Source of the DNA: Gemmatimonadales bacterium
GTDB taxonomy: Bacteria > Gemmatimonadota > Gemmatimonadetes > Gemmatimonadales > GWC2-71-9
Length of the DNA stretch: 64,000 nucleotides
Reading direction: 5' to 3'
Assembly (NCBI GenBank): GCA_035703525.1
Contig: DASSYA010000017.1
Coordinates: forward strand, 171,304-235,303
In this document: piece by piece, positions 2,886-51,581 of the stretch
Layout: each line of letters opens with the position of its first letter
How positions within the stretch are numbered: the stretch's first letter is position 1
Program-made: the position numbers and the translations under genes
The notes under the pieces: model-generated
The model's database searches: none
Seen by the model: the letters and a program-made list of their open reading frames with translations, nothing else
Told to the model about the DNA's origin: nothing

Positions 2886-3779
2886 CTACGCGACCAGGTC
2901 CTTCAGCCGCTCCCCCGTCTCACCCTCGCGGAGGCGGATGAGCGCCCGATCGCGGAGCTGGCGGATCCGCTCGCGCGTCACCCCCATCATCCGCCCGATT
3001 TCCTCGAGAGTCCGGGGTTGGCCGTCGTCGAGCCCGAAGTAGAGGCGCAGGACCTTGGCATCGCGCGGCGGGAGCGAATCGAGGGCCGCCTCGATGTCGG
3101 CGCTCTGCGAGTTCGCCATCGTGTTCGCATCGGTCCCCTCCTGCTCGGCCAGCGCGAATCGCTCCATGCGCTCGTTGCCATCCCCCTCACGGGTGGGATG
3201 GTCGAGCCGGACCGCCTCGGTGTTGAGGCTCGAGAGCGAGCGGACGGCCTCCTCGGTCAAGCCGGTGGCGCGGGCAAGCTCATCGACCGTGGGCATCCGC
3301 CCGAGCTTCTCCTTCAGGTAGGTCGTCGTCTTGCCGAGGCGCGACAGGTCGGCCGTCCGGTTGAGCGGCACCCGGACGGGGCGGCCGTGACGGGCGATGG
3401 CGGCCTGGACCGCCTGGCGGATCCACCAGACCGCGTACGAAATGAACTTGACACCGCGATCCGGATCGAACTTCCGTGCTGCCGTCATCAGCCCGAGATT
3501 GCCCTCGCCGATCAGGTCGACGAGCGGCACACCCCGGTTCTGGAACTTCTTGGCCACCGAGACGACGAAGCGCACGTTGTGCCGGGCCAGACGCTCCTGG
3601 GCGAGCACATCGCCCTTGAACGCCTTGCGGGCAAGCTCCATCTCCTCCTCACGGTTGAGGAGCGGAACCCGAGAGATCTCGTCGAGATACAGATCGAGGC
3701 TCTCGCGTCCCTCGTCGACAGCCCGGGCGATCTGGGCCGGACGGAGGGAGCGCCGCTTCCCGCGGGTACGAATGGTCAC
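2886..3779 (-). CDS. RNA polymerase sigma factor, sigma-70 family (short RpoD/SigA-like form, about 297 aa)
   Basis: Region 2 (DLIGEGNLGLMTAARKFDPDRGVKFISYAVWWIRQAV), region 3, and region 4.2 HTH (TLEEIGRMMGVTRERIRQLRDRAL) are present. Start moved to GTG 3779, which follows GAGGAG by 6 nt. The track ORF extends to 3872, but that N-terminal extension is Arg/Gly-rich junk. Confidence 0.85.
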   Translation of the reverse strand: MTIRTRGKRRSLRPAQIARAVDEGRESLDLYLDEISRVPLLNREEEMELARKAFKGDVLAQERLARHNVRFVVSVAKKFQNRGVPLVDLIGEGNLGLMTAARKFDPDRGVKFISYAVWWIRQAVQAAIARHGRPVRVPLNRTADLSRLGKTTTYLKEKLGRMPTVDELARATGLTEEAVRSLSSLNTEAVRLDHPTREGDGNERMERFALAEQEGTDANTMANSQSADIEAALDSLPPRDAKVLRLYFGLDDGQPRTLEEIGRMMGVTRERIRQLRDRALIRLREGETGERLKDLVA

Positions 3780-19724: not shown

Positions 19725-19856
19725 CAGGGGCGACCGCATTCAGGGGCGACCGCATTCAGGGGCGACCGTCAGGTCGCCCTCTGGATCATTGTAACAGGAA
19801 TCAGGCCCGACCGTGTTCAGGGGCGACCGCATTCAGGGGCGACCGTCAGGTCGCCC
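19725..19856. repeat. duplicated block of 16-nt direct repeats (CAGGGGCGACCGCATT) ending in hairpin GGGCGACC-GTCA-GGTCGCCC; 77-bp period
   Basis: Block A is 19725-19780 (16-mers at 19725, 19741 and 19757; hairpin at 19760-19779). Block B is 19802-19857 (16-mers at 19802 [degenerate], 19818 and 19834; hairpin at 19837-19856). Cross-checked against the translation of track ORF 19697..21148. Confidence 0.9.
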
Positions 19857-19879: not shown

Positions 19880-21115
19880 TCATTGGTCGTGCCGCACGAC
19901 CTGACGGTCGTGCCTGAAACATCGGTCATTGATCGTGCCAGAACGCCCCAACCCCGCCTCGATATCGGCCACGAGATCCTCGGCCGACTCGATCCCCACC
20001 GACAGCCGAAGCAACGAATCACTGATGCCCGCGAACGTGCGAGCCTCCGCGTCCATCGACGCGTGCGTCATGGTTGCCGGATGCGCCACCAGCGATTCGA
20101 CACCACCCAGCGACTCGGCCAACGTGAAGCATCGGAGTCCATCCAGGAAGTGCCGCACCGCGAGTTCCCCGCCCCGCAACTCGAACGAAACCATCGCCCC
20201 AAATCCGAGCTGCTGCCGGGCAGCGATCTCGTGACCGGGATGGCTCCGGAGTCCGGGATACCAGACGCGCTCGACGGCGGGATGCGCGCCCAGCGCGGCG
20301 ACCACCTCGACGGCGTTCTCCTCGTGGATCCTGGTGCGCGCGTGCAGCGTACGGATGCCGCGGAGCGTGAGGTAGCTGTCGAACGGCGCACCGGTCACAC
20401 CCAGGCAGTTGGCCCACCAGCCGAGCTCCTCGACCAGCGAGGCATCGCGGGCCACGACCGCGCCGCCCACCACGTCGCTGTGCCCATTGAGATACTTGGT
20501 CGTCGAATGCACGACGATGTCGGCACCGTGCTCGAGCGGTCGCTGCCACGCGGGCGACAGGAAGGTGTTGTCTGCCACAACCAGCGCACGGAGCGCATGA
20601 GCTTTCGCCGCAACCGCGCCGATGTCGGTGATCCTGAGCAACGGATTGCTCGGTGTCTCGATCCAGACCAGCCGCGGGCTTCGAGTGGCATCTCCGACTT
20701 CCGACTCCCGACTTCCGATTCCCTCCCCCGCGCCCCACGCACCGAGATCGACGAACTCCACGTCGAACAACCCCCGTCGACTGAGGTGCGTCAGCAGCCG
20801 ATGGGTGCCGCCGTAGCAATCGTGGGTGGCCAGGATCAGGTCACCCGGACGAACCAGCTGCAGCACCGTGGTGATCGCCGACATCCCGCTGCTCGTGATG
20901 ACGCCCCCACTCGCACCCTCGAGCTCCGCGATGGCTGCACCGAGCAGATCCCGCGTCGGGTTGCCCGAGCGCGTGTAGTCGTACGGTCGCTTGACACCGA
21001 ACCCTTCGAACGAGAAGGTCGACGAGAGATGGATCGGCGGGACCACCGCCCCGTGCTCGCGGTCGGAGCAGATGCCGGCACGGACGGCGTTGGTGACGCG
21101 GGGCTCACGCGGCAT
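19880..21115 (-). CDS. metB: cystathionine gamma-synthase / O-acylhomoserine-utilising PLP enzyme (MetB/MetZ family)
   Basis: Collinear with E. coli MetB as I remember it, with PLP-Lys motif [12 protein letters not shown] and C-terminal [12 protein letters not shown] 21115 overlaps the end of metX. MetB versus MetZ cannot be decided from sequence alone. Confidence 0.8.
20694..20721. repeat. intragenic heptad array CCGACTT-CCGACTC-CCGACTT-CCGATTC inside metB
   Basis: Coordinates derived codon by codon from the metB ORF. On the minus strand it is translated as [10 protein letters not shown]. Confidence 0.85.
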
Positions 21116-22016
21116 GGCGCACCTCGCTTTCGAGCGCGCGGTGGATGAACGCGCCGACCGACTCGACTTCCTTGAGGAAGCCATCGTGCCCGTAGATCGA
21201 TGACACGAGCTCGAGACGACATGCCGCAGTGCACTTCCGGGCCAGCTCCTCGAGCTGCCACGCCGGGACCAGCGTGTCCTCGTGGAAGCCGAGCAGGTCG
21301 AGCGGCACGGTGATCGCCGACGGGTCGACCTCGTGCAGGTCGAGTGATTCCGAGAGGGTCAGGTAGCGATCCGGCTCCCAGGTGGCGGCGAACCGCTGGC
21401 TGCCGTGATCGAGATAGCCTTCAACCGGGAATGCTCCCGAGGCCGTATCGCGCCCCGACTCGAATCGGGCCGCGAACTCCTCGGCCGTCCGGTAGGTGGT
21501 CATGCCGAGGGCACGGGCGAGTGCCACACCCTCGGTGGGGAGGCCGGCGGCGAGTCCGAGCCGGATGATCCGCCGCTGGATGACGCGGTGCGCCGTCGCC
21601 ATCGGATGGGTCTGATGCGCCGCCGCGATCACGACGAGGCGACCGACGCGCGTCGGATGACGTGCGGCGAACGCGAGCGCCACCATCCCGCCGTACGACG
21701 CGCCGACGATCGCATGGACCGCCTCACCGCCGAGCTCATCGAGGACGGTCGCGAGCTGATCGGCCTGATCGGTGGTCGTGACCGGTGCTCCGTCGGTGTG
21801 CCAGTCGATGCCGAGCACGCGCTGGCGTCTGGTGTCGACGGCGAGACCGGGACCGACGATGCCGTCCCACCAACCGGGCTGCGGATTGCTCTCGGTCTGG
21901 CAGAGATGGCGATGGGCGGAGATCCCGCCGAGCACCACCACGAGAGGGGCGTGCGGCGGGCCGGTGAGTTCCCAGGTCAGTGGTGTCGTGGGCGTGCGGG
22001 CAGTCGTGAGGGACAT
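21105..22016 (-). CDS. metX: homoserine O-acyltransferase (MetX family, short form)
   Basis: Alpha/beta hydrolase with MetX signatures PGWWDGIVGPGLAVDT, nucleophile elbow GASYGGM and C-terminal GHDGFLKE. Lies directly upstream of metB. Confidence 0.8.
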   Translation of the reverse strand: MSLTTARTPTTPLTWELTGPPHAPLVVVLGGISAHRHLCQTESNPQPGWWDGIVGPGLAVDTRRQRVLGIDWHTDGAPVTTTDQADQLATVLDELGGEAVHAIVGASYGGMVALAFAARHPTRVGRLVVIAAAHQTHPMATAHRVIQRRIIRLGLAAGLPTEGVALARALGMTTYRTAEEFAARFESGRDTASGAFPVEGYLDHGSQRFAATWEPDRYLTLSESLDLHEVDPSAITVPLDLLGFHEDTLVPAWQLEELARKCTAACRLELVSSIYGHDGFLKEVESVGAFIHRALESEVRHAA

Positions 22017-22110
22017 CGTGCGTCTCCGGCGGGTGAATGTTGCTCCACGACTCCCGGGCGGAAACGACGAACGCCCGGCGGCACGTGAAGGCCGCCAGGC
22101 GAGATACGCA
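22017..22110 (-). promoter_or_regulatory. structured 5' leader of metX-metB (candidate riboswitch/attenuator, class unknown)
   Basis: The minus-strand leader contains mutually exclusive helices: GCCTGGCGGC/GCCGCCGGGC versus CCGGGCG/CGCCCGG. The 5' segment GTGCGT..TCTC is complementary to the SD-start region GGAGACGCAC. Confidence 0.35.
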
Positions 22111-22139
22111 CTTTTAGCAGTTGTTTAACGTGGTTGCAA
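22111..22139 (-). promoter_or_regulatory. candidate sigma-70-type promoter of metX (TTGCAA-N17-TAAAAG on minus strand)
   Basis: The only AT-rich patch in this intergenic region. Hexamers lie at 22139..22134 and 22116..22111 with exactly 17-nt spacing. Confidence 0.45.
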
Positions 22140-22213
22140 GCAGCGGCAAATGACCACGGACTCCTTCGATTGTGACCGGAGGATAGATCCGGGGTTGGGC
22201 GTGGTCAAGGGAG

Positions 22214-22241
22214 GGATCGGACGTCGGAGGTCGGACGGCAG
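22214..22241. repeat. heptad array GGATCGG-ACGTCGG-AGGTCGG-ACGGCAG (left arm)
   Basis: Read directly and cross-checked with track ORF 22150..22794. It is complementary to the array at 22803-22837, with a 12-nt perfect core GTCGGAGGTCGG. Confidence 0.75.
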
Positions 22242-22309: not shown

Positions 22310-22783
22310 ATGATCCCCAGTCTCCCCACCCCTCTCGCCCCATGGGAACGGCGACTGATCCACGCCGCCTATCTCTTCGGGCTGGTGGTGGTCGGCCGCG
22401 TGGCAGCCGGCATCCTGAAGTGGATGCCGCCGGCCAGCGTCCTGATCGCACTCCAGCTCCTCGCCGCGGCAGGGGGCGTGATGTTCGTCTATCTCAGATG
22501 GTCTGCGCGTGGTCGAGCGGGTGCCCCACCGGCGTGGTTCGTGACACACGTCCTCTGGTTGATGATGTCGTTCCTCTATACCGTGGCCTGGGCGATCGGG
22601 ACGGCGGTATTCCTCTTCGGAGCCGTGGTGGTGGTCGCGACATTCCGCTCGCTCGCGGCACTGGCGGTGTATGGCCCGATCCTGGTGGCAGCCTTGATCG
22701 CGCTCTGGTTCATCTATCGAATGGTGCGGGGGTACCTGGATTACCTGCGAGAGTACCCGGCGGCGGAGATGTTGCCGCGCTGA
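22310..22783 (+). CDS. small integral membrane protein (4 predicted TM helices), function unknown
   Basis: The hydrophobic segment pattern is clear. GGAG lies 6 nt before ATG 22310. The alternative-frame 214-aa ORF (22150..22794) is Arg/Pro/Gly-rich and is rejected. Confidence 0.6.
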
Positions 22784-22802: not shown

Positions 22803-22837
22803 CCGACTTCCGACCGCCGACCTCCGACCGCCGACCT
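22803..22837. repeat. heptad array CCGACTT-CCGACCG-CCGACCT-CCGACCG-CCGACCT (right arm)
   Basis: Coordinates derived from the translation of track ORF 22274..22927 (...[13 protein letters not shown]...). It lies between the membrane-protein stop and the ettA start. Confidence 0.85.
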
Positions 22838-22856
22838 CCCGTTATCTTCCGCCCCC

Positions 22857-24536: not shown

Positions 24537-24689
24537 GTGAGAAGCGAGAAGCGAGAAGTGAGAAGCGAGAAGTGAGAAGCGAGAAGTGAGACGCAGGAAC
24601 TCGGACGTCCACAGCGGATGGGTGTCGCAGCATCCGGAGCTTCTCGCTTCTCGCTTCTCGCTTCTCGCTTCTCACTTCTCGCTTCTCAC
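24537..24689. repeat. heptad-repeat palindromic element 2: (GYGAGAA)x8, 48-nt spacer, (TTCTCRC)x7
   Basis: Left array is 24537-24592 and right array 24641-24689. Cross-checked with track ORF 23546..24589 (...REKREARSEKREVRSEK*). It starts 3 nt after the ettA stop. Confidence 0.9.
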
Positions 24690-49304: not shown

Positions 49305-50291
49305 TCACTCGCGACTCAGGACCACACCGAATCCGCCGAAGAACTTGCCGGTATTCGGATTGACCTCGGCGAAGCGCGTCGTGAGTGCCAGGTTCGAACC
49401 GACCTGATAGCCGCCTTCGGCCACGAACTCGAGCGGGCCGAGGTGGACCCCCAGATTCAACGCCGTGACGATCCGCATTCCCGACAACTTCGGCTCCAGG
49501 GGCGCGCCCACCACGTCGGTCCCGGGGTCGCGGTAGGCGACCTCGCCGGTGCCGGAGAGCAGATCCACGCCGGCACCGGCGGCCAGGTCGAGCCAGTCGA
49601 ATCGCTTCCCCGCGAACAGGCGCACGTCGATCGAGGAGGCGTTGAAGGTGTACGCCGTCGTGTTGCCATCCGTGGTGCCGCCAAGCTGCACCGTCGGTGT
49701 CGAGCGCTTCATGATCGTGAGCGAGACCGTCGGGAGCGTCGGGCTCGTCATCCCGAACCGGACCCCCCAGTCGAGGGTCACGGCCGCCTTGCCGATCGTC
49801 CGACTCCCCGGCACCGGGGTGAACGCCGTGGTGCGATCGCTCGGGATCACCAGCGCCGAGAACATCGCGTCGACGCCAATTGTCCCCATTGGCATCACCA
49901 TCTGGACCAGGCCGAGCGCCAGATCGACGTGTGGCGCATAGAACTGCACCCGCTGGCCGACCGCCACAGTGTCGGTGCTGCCGTCGTAGGTGAGGTCGGG
50001 GATCACCCCCGTTGCCGTGGTGGCCCGGAGCGTCACGGCGAAGTGACCGAACTTCCCGATCGGCGCCGCACTGCCGAGACGGGGATTGCCACCGTTCATG
50101 AGGAGCGCCGCGAACGGGTGGAGCATCGTCGCGCCGTCGAGCGCGGCCTGACAGACCTTGAGTCCCCCCGCCGACAGCGAGTCGGGACAGACCACGGGGA
50201 GCGCCGTGGCCGCGGTATCGGCCTGGGCCACCGCCGGAATCGGCGTCGCGGCGACGAGGAGGGCGATCAGAACGAGCTGGCGAATGGGCAC
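49305..50291 (-). CDS. hypothetical secreted/outer-membrane protein
   Basis: Signal peptide ...LVLIALLVAATPIPAVAQA. Start preferred at GTG 50291 (GGAGA 5 nt upstream). The longest-ORF ATG 50306 has no SD and lies 6 nt from the repeat array. Confidence 0.45.
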   Translation of the reverse strand: MPIRQLVLIALLVAATPIPAVAQADTAATALPVVCPDSLSAGGLKVCQAALDGATMLHPFAALLMNGGNPRLGSAAPIGKFGHFAVTLRATTATGVIPDLTYDGSTDTVAVGQRVQFYAPHVDLALGLVQMVMPMGTIGVDAMFSALVIPSDRTTAFTPVPGSRTIGKAAVTLDWGVRFGMTSPTLPTVSLTIMKRSTPTVQLGGTTDGNTTAYTFNASSIDVRLFAGKRFDWLDLAAGAGVDLLSGTGEVAYRDPGTDVVGAPLEPKLSGMRIVTALNLGVHLGPLEFVAEGGYQVGSNLALTTRFAEVNPNTGKFFGGFGVVLSRE

Positions 50292-50312
50292 GGCGTCTCC
50301 GGGCATTGGCTT

Positions 50313-50546
50313 ACGAGAAACGAGAAGCGAGAAGCGAGAAGCGAGAAACGAGAAACGAGAAACGAGAAGCGAGAGACGAGACGAGACGAGAAACGAGAAA
50401 CGGGAGACGGGAGACGAGAGACGGGAGACGGGAGACGGGAGACGGGAGACGCGAGCAAGGTAATGGAACGTGTTTGGAGACAGGCGTCACGCTTCTCGCT
50501 TCTCACTTCTCATTTCTCGCTTCTCGCTTCTCGCTTCTCGCTTCTC
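50313..50546. repeat. heptad-repeat palindromic element 3 (expanded, asymmetric): 19 heptads + 2 pentamers, AT-richer spacer, 8 heptads
   Basis: Left array is 50313-50455 (ACGAGAA/GCGAGAA, then ACGGGAG variants). Right array is 50491-50546 (GCTTCTC/ACTTCTC/ATTTCTC). Verified against the translation of track ORF 50306..50572. The right array runs into the TAA stop (50550-50552) of the upstream minus-strand gene. Confidence 0.92.
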
Positions 50547-50549
50547 GCT

Positions 50550-51581
50550 TTACAGCCCTGCCCGCACAATAATCCGATACGACAGCTCCCACGGCGTCCC
50601 GAAGAACGCCTCGCTCTGTTCACTGTCGATCCGATGGAATCGCACTTCGGTGTCGAACGAGACGCCCGTGCTGGCGTCGCCGAAGCGGCGCCATGCACCG
50701 AGTTCGGTGTACCGGCGCTCGGCACGGTAGACGCCCGGCGTATGCCCCACGGAGCCGTAGTTGGCATCCCCGGCGGCGGCCGCGAAGTCCTGACCTCGCC
50801 AATGGATCACGAAGAGCGCCCAGAGTGGCCACGGATTCACCTCACCACGAAGCCATGTCCCCGACCCGCCGCGCGGTTGGTCGGTCGGGTAGGCCGGGTC
50901 GAGGTGCCCGTCGCTCCAGAGTCTCGCCGCCTGGACGCTGCCGTGCCGGACGATCGGGAGCGAACCTGACAAGGTCGCACCGAGTGCCGTGACGCGGTTG
51001 TTGGTCACCGGGACACCGGCATCGAACAACTGCCCGCCGTGATGCGACCAGAGGTGTTGGGCGTCGATGCTGAGGCCGCGCACCGGACGAACGCGTGCAA
51101 CGATGCCCATCTCGAACGCCTCACGCTGCGCCGGTGTATTCAGTCGCTGCCAGTTGATCCACGCCTCGGCGTCGAGCCGTTCGCGGCGTTCGCGCCACTG
51201 CAGGCCATACTCGATCGGCGTCGTGAGCTCGCGTGTGCTGACCATCAGTGGGTCAATGAGGCCGTGTCGACGCGTGTTCTCGAGGGTGCCGATCACACCC
51301 AGGGAATGCGGGGTCGTGTAGCGGGCGGCGAGGATCGGCTTGAGCGAGTCGGTGAACTCCTCGCTGCCCCAGCGACGGTCGGCGAAGACGCCCAGGCGGA
51401 GCGCCAGGTGACCGGTCGCCTGCCCGGAGATCCAGCCCTGCACCTGTCCACCGAGAATCGTCTCGCCGACACGGTACGGGGTGAAGAATTCGGTGTTGTC
51501 GCCGTAGAGCGTGGCGCGGAGCTGCCAGTCGATCCGCTGTGCGCCGAGGATGGGGCACGCGAGGGCCAGCAGGAGGATCAC
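50550..51581 (-). CDS. hypothetical secreted protein
   Basis: The only in-frame start near the hydrophobic N-terminus is GTG 51581 (M-ILLLALACPILGAQ). No family recognised. The start is uncertain. Confidence 0.4.
   Translation of the reverse strand: MILLLALACPILGAQRIDWQLRATLYGDNTEFFTPYRVGETILGGQVQGWISGQATGHLALRLGVFADRRWGSEEFTDSLKPILAARYTTPHSLGVIGTLENTRRHGLIDPLMVSTRELTTPIEYGLQWRERRERLDAEAWINWQRLNTPAQREAFEMGIVARVRPVRGLSIDAQHLWSHHGGQLFDAGVPVTNNRVTALGATLSGSLPIVRHGSVQAARLWSDGHLDPAYPTDQPRGGSGTWLRGEVNPWPLWALFVIHWRGQDFAAAAGDANYGSVGHTPGVYRAERRYTELGAWRRFGDASTGVSFDTEVRFHRIDSEQSEAFFGTPWELSYRIIVRAGL

Follow-up and report, generated by a model that had tools for sequence, protein, structure and literature searches.

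The element at positions 50313-50546 of the window, by which we mean the whole 64,000-nt stretch of Gemmatimonadales DNA that was analysed, is a lineage-specific heptanucleotide simple-sequence repeat in the form of an inverted pair (palindrome), and it fills nearly all of the 258-nt spacer between two co-directional genes encoding outer-membrane proteins. Inverted pairs of heptads are a kind of repeat already known from Xanthomonas, and what is new here is the unit, GAGAAGY, and its occurrence in Gemmatimonadales. What sets the element apart is chiefly the strictness of its orientation rules, together with signs of flipping. We lean slightly towards the reading that this inverted-pair repeat was grown by slippage and that its hairpin has a terminator-like or 3′-end-protecting role for the upstream gene.

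Architecture of the inverted repeat and its flanking genes

The heptad repeat is intergenic, lying between the stop of the upstream gene at 50550 and the start of the downstream gene at 50291. The features of the locus, with the arms named after the sense RNA, are as follows:

50550..51581, minus strand: upstream gene, lipid A deacylase-like outer-membrane protein, 343 aa (from the ORF list and a Pfam record)
50485..50549, minus strand: 5′ arm, 8 GAGAAGC-type units (50491-50546) plus partial units
50456..50490, no strand assigned: spacer, 35 nt, non-repeat, part of the loop
50384..50455, minus strand: nested loop array, unpaired in folds (from the unit parse and composition)
50423..50446, plus strand: G3N4G3N4G3N4G3 motif, GGGAGAC x3 then GGG, as read from the sequence
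50313..50383, minus strand: 3′ arm, units 1-10 of CUUCUCG/UUUCUCG types, pairing with the 5′ arm
50297..50300, minus strand: GGAG motif, Shine-Dalgarno-like, 5 nt upstream of GTG 50291
49305..50291, minus strand: downstream gene, 328 aa, start GTG 50291, with a signal peptide; predicted outer-membrane beta-barrel

A unit-by-unit parse resolved the left side (50313-50455) into 21 units and the right side (50491-50546) into 8 complementary units, which are of GAGAAGC type on the minus strand. In order, left units 1-9 are ACGAGAA (x2), GCGAGAA (x3), ACGAGAA (x3) and GCGAGAG, and units 10-21 are ACGAG (x2), ACGAGAA (x2), ACGGGAG (x2), ACGAGAG, ACGGGAG (x4) and ACGCGAG, so that the left side holds ten units of GAGAA type, one GCGAGAG, two 5-nt ACGAG, six ACGGGAG, one ACGAGAG and one ACGCGAG. 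The spacer at 50456-50490 has about 51% G+C, compared with 68% for the window. The original prediction had given 21 units against 8 with a 35-nt AT-richer spacer, and its counts and coordinates match the parse exactly. Tandem Repeats Finder reported three arrays of period 7, namely 50313-50423 (15.4 copies, unit ACGAGAA), 50383-50455 (10.4 copies, unit GAGACGG) and 50490-50550 (8.7 copies, unit CGCTTCT). In the window the two-unit pattern has 38 matches, where 1.16 were expected and no shuffle gave more than 6, and the array is thus a long simple-sequence repeat, with a tandem unit within the 5-11 nt range and a length beyond chance. A coding reading of the array was rejected: with a period of 7 no reading frame stays intact, and the ORFs that cross it are spurious.

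The results of RNA folding showed that the minus-strand transcript of the element reaches −122.3 kcal/mol (z = −10.7). The two opposite-strand arrays lie close together in convergent orientation, and the inverted repeat I1 joins 50318-50383 to 50485-50550 over 66 nt with 88% complementarity; in the minimum free energy (MFE) structure 57 pairs are consecutive, which gives a stem of ~57-66 bp. The loop of ~100 nt is made up of 11 surplus units and the 35-nt spacer. The arms had been described beforehand as lopsided, which does not hold for the stem itself: about 10 units pair with 8-9, and the surplus 11 lie in the loop. Since units 1-10 pair with 50485-50550, the stem is roughly balanced, and what looked like an expansion is a second array inside the loop. 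This nested array consists of the end of the second ACGAG, two ACGAGAA and eight units of GGGAG/GAGAG/GCGAG type (50400-50455). As had also been predicted, the ACGGGAG units have no partners in the other arm, and the folds leave the ACGGGAG-type array unpaired.

The 5′ arm is purine-rich, with 44% A, 41% G and 12% C. On the sense RNA, the 72 nt of loop repeat contain 49% C, 15% G, 0% A and 33 YC dinucleotides, and the spacer has 34% C and 17% G. The unit GAGAAGC contains no GGG run, and only the nested array fits four G3N4 repeats, at 50423-50446, which formally matches a G-quadruplex motif; the DNA strand concerned is the template of both minus-strand genes. The arms should be unable to form quadruplexes, because the main unit GAGAAGY is without a G-tract.

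The stop codon of the upstream gene is TAA 50552..50550; 3 nt further on the repeat sets in, and at this end GTAAAGC precedes GAGAAGC. An identical 343-aa product has been recorded in two other samples with the precomputed Pfam match PF28590 (Lipid_A_deac); our own Pfam search of this protein gave no match. NCBI protein VFN22_06435, from a Gemmatimonadales MAG, is an exact match to the 328-aa product of the downstream gene, a protein that has no Pfam domain. Its structural model (pLDDT 68) contains about 12 strands, its Foldseek matches are all outer-membrane barrels (TM 0.3-0.4), and the prediction is an outer-membrane beta-barrel that carries a helix at the N-terminus. The protein (49305-50291, minus strand) belongs to a small family with 32 matches at E ≤ 1e-10, all of them Gemmatimonadales-type sequences.

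The array ends 6 nt from ATG 50306, the start of the longest ORF, and the original prediction had therefore placed the downstream start at GTG 50291. This placement was borne out, since both the NCBI and the Logan gene calls use GTG 50291, the N-termini of eight homologs align to it, and the GGAG motif stands 5 nt upstream, retained as ccggag in an 88% relative (L136). The gene start can thus be regarded as settled at GTG 50291 for this genome. That the upstream stop TAA 50552..50550 runs into the array, and that the array ends 6 nt from ATG 50306, were likewise confirmed.

Repeats of other types were observed elsewhere in the window. A TCCGACT heptad array (20693-20722; 4.4 units, 30 nt) lies in frame within a gene for a Cys/Met PLP-dependent enzyme, where it encodes 13 residues, and the Pfam match of the enzyme spans it unbroken. 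Intergenic heptads at 22217-22237 and 22803-22839 (TCGGACG, and CCGACCK with a 14-nt super-period) surround a small membrane-protein gene (22310-22783) and lie immediately upstream of an EttA-like ABC-F gene (22857). Two arrays of a 16-nt unit (CAGGGGCGACCGCATT) at 19725-19768 and 19808-19846, each followed by the hairpin caggggcgaccgtcaggtcgccctc, lie between convergent or adjacent genes and represent a repeat type distinct from the heptads. No Rfam family covers the element, and the only Rfam match in the window is a SAM_alpha (SAM-II) riboswitch at 22094-22167 (minus strand; 40.9 bits against a gathering threshold of 36), upstream of genes for an alpha/beta-hydrolase (MetX-like, 21105-22016) and the Cys/Met PLP enzyme (19880-21184). 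The SAM_alpha family was described for Alphaproteobacteria, and the match here sits in a Gemmatimonadales genome.

Polarity and turnover of GAGAAGY arrays

A scan for (GAGAAGY)x4 in one genome per species yielded at least 119 loci in many phyla, at least 23 of them in Gemmatimonadota. Among the matches listed, 13 inverted pairs were found in other genomes, from at least five phyla, and together with the three palindromes of the window they make 16. The purine arm comes first in all 16 of these pairs (matches listed and window) and the reverse order occurs in none; a second count of pair order, among the matches listed, gave 14:0 for purine-first. No reverse-order pair was matched in 241 million metagenome records, in a scan that had no positive control in that collection, and a search of viral contigs, which returned no palindrome in either orientation, was uninformative.

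A corresponding polarity relates the arrays to genes. Among the matches listed, the end of a long ORF lies 0-40 nt upstream of the array in 49 of 114 cases for the purine strand and in 12 of 115 for the pyrimidine strand; when only ORF ends within 6 nt are counted, there are 25 purine-strand arrays against a single pyrimidine-strand one, and a crude gene caller gave an ORF-end polarity of 44:2. The stop codon is often the first TGA of the array or lies inside a degenerate first unit, again among the matches listed. Across the matches listed and the window, the palindromes sit 2-12 nt from stop codons and between convergent or co-directional genes, at most one of the 16 being in a divergent spacer. 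Among the matches listed, from many phyla, the purine strand of the same 7-nt unit is almost always the sense strand right after a stop codon. No description of GAGAAGY arrays or of their placement after stop codons was found in the literature searched.

Besides the element at 50313-50546, two palindromes are present in the window:

2779-2878: palindrome member 1, between convergent genes, enclosing a GC hairpin
24539-24687: further palindrome, between co-directional genes

In each, a stop codon precedes the start of the palindrome by 2-5 nt. Member 1 and L009, a locus in another genome, enclose GC-rich terminator-type hairpins. The mutual similarity scores of the three window loops equal the shuffle mean and the three palindromes share no conserved core of the REP/BIME/MITE kind; since the loops are unrelated, the window palindromes are not copies of a mobile element, and a MITE or REP reading was rejected on this ground and because arm lengths vary freely. 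Arm lengths differ by at least two units in about half of the pairs, among the matches listed (4.5 against 8 in L097), so that asymmetry is normal for the GAGAAGY family and 50313-50546 is the extreme case of it.

Comparison with relatives revealed a rapid turnover of the locus. In a syntenic relative (kinase, deacylase, barrel, GH57; 83% amino acid identity) the spacer is 81 nt long and contains no heptads, and in the 88% relative about 7 CTTCTC-type units adjoin the same start codon on its upstream side, and the loop is a different, REP-like one. Copy number between relatives is thus nil at 83% identity and different at 88%; within the species the signs of change are indirect, in the form of contigs that break off in the arms and of L001, a contig of this locus with one unit fewer. 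More distant orthologs carry ordinary GC hairpins and a conserved leader. These loci (L127-L135) have in common a GC hairpin (CCGGCCATTCTTGCCGCTCCGGCAGGGATGGCCGG) and a leader (TTCTTGCGATTTCGCACGGCGACCTC..GGAGTCGCCGTG), both conserved and situated ~40-170 nt before the orthologous gene; the leader is probably the native terminator/promoter region, whose place the heptad palindrome took in the lineage of the window. Given its absence at 83%, its different form at 88% and the ordinary hairpins of distant orthologs, the element is young and changing fast. At the between-species level, the different arms and loop at 88% and the lack of the repeat at 83% uphold the earlier idea of a hotspot of variation. 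Look-ups of the genes beside the other arrays of the window found no strain-level sequence, and a 26-mer of the spacer was absent from the JGI metagenomes.

Another Gemmatimonadales MAG has a heptad palindrome whose loop is likewise occupied by the REP-like sequence of the 88% relative. This sequence (...gtgcagatccctc...gctccgstcgggatgac and its inverse) occurs in or beside the loops of heptad arrays in other Gemmatimonadota, at L136:1-60, the orthologous locus of the 88% relative, and at L012:6630-6750, L006:~3215-3330 and L118:~1955; it is absent from this window.

The left array contains blocks of identical neighbouring units together with the one-step intermediates of a series GAGAA -> GAGAG -> GGGAG. 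ACGGGAG is two substitutions away from ACGAGAA, and the one-step form ACGAGAG is present in the array. The window has no ACGGGAG outside this array, and of the 136 loci compared L001 alone, which is the same locus, carries it. Similar unit drift along arrays was found in other genomes (L118 and L083), and the CTCCCGT units show a weak local match to a pyrimidine-rich leader in L124, a possible ancestral source. The surplus units would have arisen in place by point mutation from GAGAA through GAGAG to GGGAG, each new unit then multiplying through replication slippage, and each arm would lengthen and shorten independently. A slippage origin of the surplus units is well supported. Slippage of one side had been proposed at the outset and stands, given the blocks of identical units, the intermediates, the private ACGGGAG, the drift, the unequal arms and the turnover; the accompanying claim of slippage rather than selection is too simple in view of the polarity rules of the family.

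Possible role of the hairpin and competing explanations

We infer that the hairpin acts at the level of RNA or transcription, most likely as a terminator-like 3′-end hairpin without a U-tract. In the sense-strand transcript, the purine arm (GAGAAGC)n begins 3 nt after the stop codon, and a duplex of ~57-66 bp can form between it and the ~10 outermost units of the pyrimidine arm. An rPy:dPu hybrid is weak by nucleic-acid thermodynamics, and as the hairpin closes, the weak hybrid of the pyrimidine-rich 3′ arm could stand in for a U-tract. Replacement of the U-tract by the pyrimidine 3′ arm would explain why the purine arm always comes first. More generally, the polarity rules argue for a role at the level of the transcript, since neutral processes, or ones acting purely on DNA, would not tell purine-first from pyrimidine-first order.

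The hairpin is nevertheless, with its long perfect stem and 100-nt loop, unlike known intrinsic terminators. Consensus scans of 49900-51000 found no canonical terminator or promoter, the promoter consensus used being possibly not that of this phylum; the search for canonical intrinsic terminators returned 0 sites in this interval, where the stem is ~60 bp and the loop ~100 nt. The downstream start lies 21 nt beyond the stem, and an efficient terminator would silence the downstream gene, because the distance from stem to start is only 21 nt and no promoter is visible. Partial termination, or a processing or stabilising site, is accordingly likelier on these grounds; termination is probably partial, or the hairpin is a processing/stabilising site in a bicistronic RNA. 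Since the element is absent from the close syntenic relative, any role that it plays is dispensable.

The fold energy is better on the sense strand for window members 2 and 3. G:U wobble as a sign of selection on the sense-strand RNA was rejected across the family, as the sense strand is the better one in only 3 of 7 unambiguous cases. The notion that single arrays form the A-tract side of terminators was unsupported, the downstream flank being the more structured in 52 of 102 among the matches listed; the single arrays of Gemmatimonadota gave a weak trend (12 of 18, p = 0.08, among the matches listed).

A neutral origin is a real possibility, which we judge doubtful overall. It holds that slippage-prone heptads fill a dispensable spacer, that the polarity is a mutational or transcription-coupled bias and that the hairpin is functionless. 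The absence of the element from the 83% syntenic relative and its difference in the 88% relative fit this explanation, as do the commonness of unit drift and unequal arms, the lack of a sense-strand fold advantage across the family, and the over-representation of heptanucleotide repeats in bacteria, for which polymerase slippage has been proposed (Mrazek 2007, as cited in PMC4679880 and PMC4692102). Neutral slippage does not, however, predict the 16:0 excess of purine-first pairs (matches listed and window), the sense-strand placement after stops (49/114 against 12/115, among the matches listed) or the scarcity in divergent spacers (at most 1 in 16, matches listed and window), and pairs of the same unit flanking a spacer are far commoner than independent arrays would yield. 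Another explanation, an improbable one, makes the element a Rho-dependent terminator or attenuator, in which the stem would display the unpaired, C-rich and G-poor loop of ~100 nt as a rut site between the genes. Sites of this kind are C-rich, G-poor, unstructured and ~70-80 nt long. The 72-nt loop repeat (49% C, 15% G, 0% A, 33 YC), which is unpaired in the MFE structure, agrees with this by composition alone, as the spacer does with 34% C and 17% G, and the surplus units would thereby acquire a role. The composition is, however, automatic for the complement of a purine-rich repeat, the other two window palindromes have no such loops, and, if the junction in L001 described below is real, the loop also occurs in the opposite, G-rich orientation.

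The two remaining explanations turn on how the locus behaves in other assemblies. Logan contigs, which we take to be k = 31 assemblies, from other samples reproduce 50290-50343 (L002), 50424-50533 (L001) and 50522-50552 (L003 and L004), and 50344-50423 (80 nt, ~11 units) is covered by this assembly alone, for which reason the exact count of 21 is without independent confirmation. Exact-protein look-ups further showed that contigs from three other samples stop inside the arms, in line with the assembly risk that had been foreseen; the locus is a spot where short-read assemblies break or mis-join. L001 (SRR30566757) agrees with the plus strand from the GGGAGAC units across the spacer and along the right arm, then crosses 10 consecutive 31-mers absent from the window and enters the downstream gene on the minus strand. 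The contig thereby (L001:1-139) connects loop and right arm, both in plus-strand orientation, with a left arm that is read on the minus strand and is one CTTCTCG unit shorter; it represents either a palindrome flipped by arm-arm recombination or a chimeric-read artefact that gives the same pattern. Mis-assembly of the 21-versus-8 asymmetry, or of part of the left array, from short reads is very unlikely as an account of the element. The 80 nt lacking an independent contig, the failure of other assemblies at the locus and the alternative join in L001 would agree with it; against this, 110 nt of L001 are identical to the window and independently give most of the right arm, the spacer, ACGCGAG and four GGGAGAC units, the two outer junctions recur among L002-L004, and L097 too contains an asymmetric pair. 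Moreover, the region contains no repeated k-mers at k = 31 to 141, which makes the de Bruijn path unambiguous. Without repeated 31-mers, the contig breaks in turn imply mixtures of variants or loss of coverage, and this bears on a contingency (phase-variation) element, in which a change of unit number or a flip would tune the downstream beta-barrel gene. We regard such an element as unlikely, even with outer-membrane proteins encoded on both sides, the repeat directly upstream of the start codon, and the flipped-palindrome signature of L001 (10 novel 31-mers, one unit fewer). With regard to an inverton, the inverted repeats are present and one contig has the flipped form; but consensus scans of the loop found no promoter-like site in either orientation, the flip is seen in one contig only and may be a chimeric-read or graph artefact, a known result of palindromes, and the contigs form no series of lengths differing by 7 nt.

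In its most far-reaching form, the proposal would make GAGAAGY palindromes a self-renewing, U-tract-free transcript-end signal across phyla, with a flip by arm recombination at 50313-50546 that switches the ~100-nt loop between a C-rich Rho-loading and a G-rich quadruplex-capable state and so provides recombinase-free phase variation of the outer-membrane barrel gene; this is highly speculative, and we give it very little credence.

Relation to known repeat systems and implications

The closest counterpart of the element is found in Xanthomonas, where 70-75 of ~185 sites of GGGAATC heptamers are inverted pairs, 'always' convergent (Rehm et al. 2015, PMC4692102); the length of these repeats varies between close species while the type is kept, and most are transcribed (PMC4692102). 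The Xanthomonas repeats and this locus are both intergenic and built from tandem 7-nt units of variable copy number, and the nested GGGAGAC array fits the GGGNNNN, G-quadruplex-capable format of Xanthomonas. In contrast, the main unit here is GAGAAGY without a G-tract, the phylum is Gemmatimonadota, the arms have 8-21 units and the loop holds a second, derived unit type; placement just after the stop on the sense strand is a feature of GAGAAGY unreported for Xanthomonas (PMC4692102). TAACTGA heptamers in marine Beggiatoaceae, Cyanobacteria and Bacteroidetes, for which a post-transcriptional role has been proposed (MacGregor 2015, PMC4679880), resemble GAGAAGY in that one heptamer forms direct repeats in unrelated phyla with a fixed orientation to genes, whereas TAACTGA arrays lie just upstream of starts with only one reported inverted case (PMC4679880), and GAGAAGY arrays lie mainly just after stops and are often paired. 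Heptanucleotides are the most abundant long-unit class, with slippage as the proposed cause, according to the account of Mrazek et al. 2007 given in PMC4679880 and PMC4692102. Like this locus, prokaryotic long repeats of 5-11 nt units and the STRR heptamers of cyanobacteria are, as far as those accounts extend, intergenic and phylogenetically patchy; the long-repeat surveys, as represented there, deal with abundance, whereas palindromic architecture, gene-end polarity and nested derived arrays belong to this locus.

Intrinsic terminators, often bidirectional, resemble the element in their location at the 3′ ends of genes, with convergent or co-directional neighbours, and in the order of their parts, with purine-rich sequence 5′ of a hairpin and pyrimidine-rich sequence 3′ of it; they differ from it in having a U-tract and a stem of 5-14 bp, as against ~60 bp with a loop of ~100 nt here. 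REP/BIME elements are likewise repeated palindromic sequences after stop codons, and REP elements can stabilise the upstream mRNA; REPs are, however, fixed units of 20-40 nt spread by a RAYT transposase, whereas the arms here are tandem repeats and the loops are unrelated. The pil1 switch of Streptococcus gallolyticus, as outlined in PMC3894217, also sets a short tandem repeat beside a stem-loop terminator upstream of a surface-structure gene; that switch, according to the same outline, operates through translation of a leader peptide whose frame is set by a 5-nt repeat, and no leader peptide is evident here.

If the polarity rules of the GAGAAGY family are functional, they point to a terminator-like signal without a U-tract, which, if true, matters for the prediction of operon ends in GC-rich, poorly studied phyla. 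If they result from mutation bias instead, the family would be a clean case of transcription or translation orienting the growth of a repeat.
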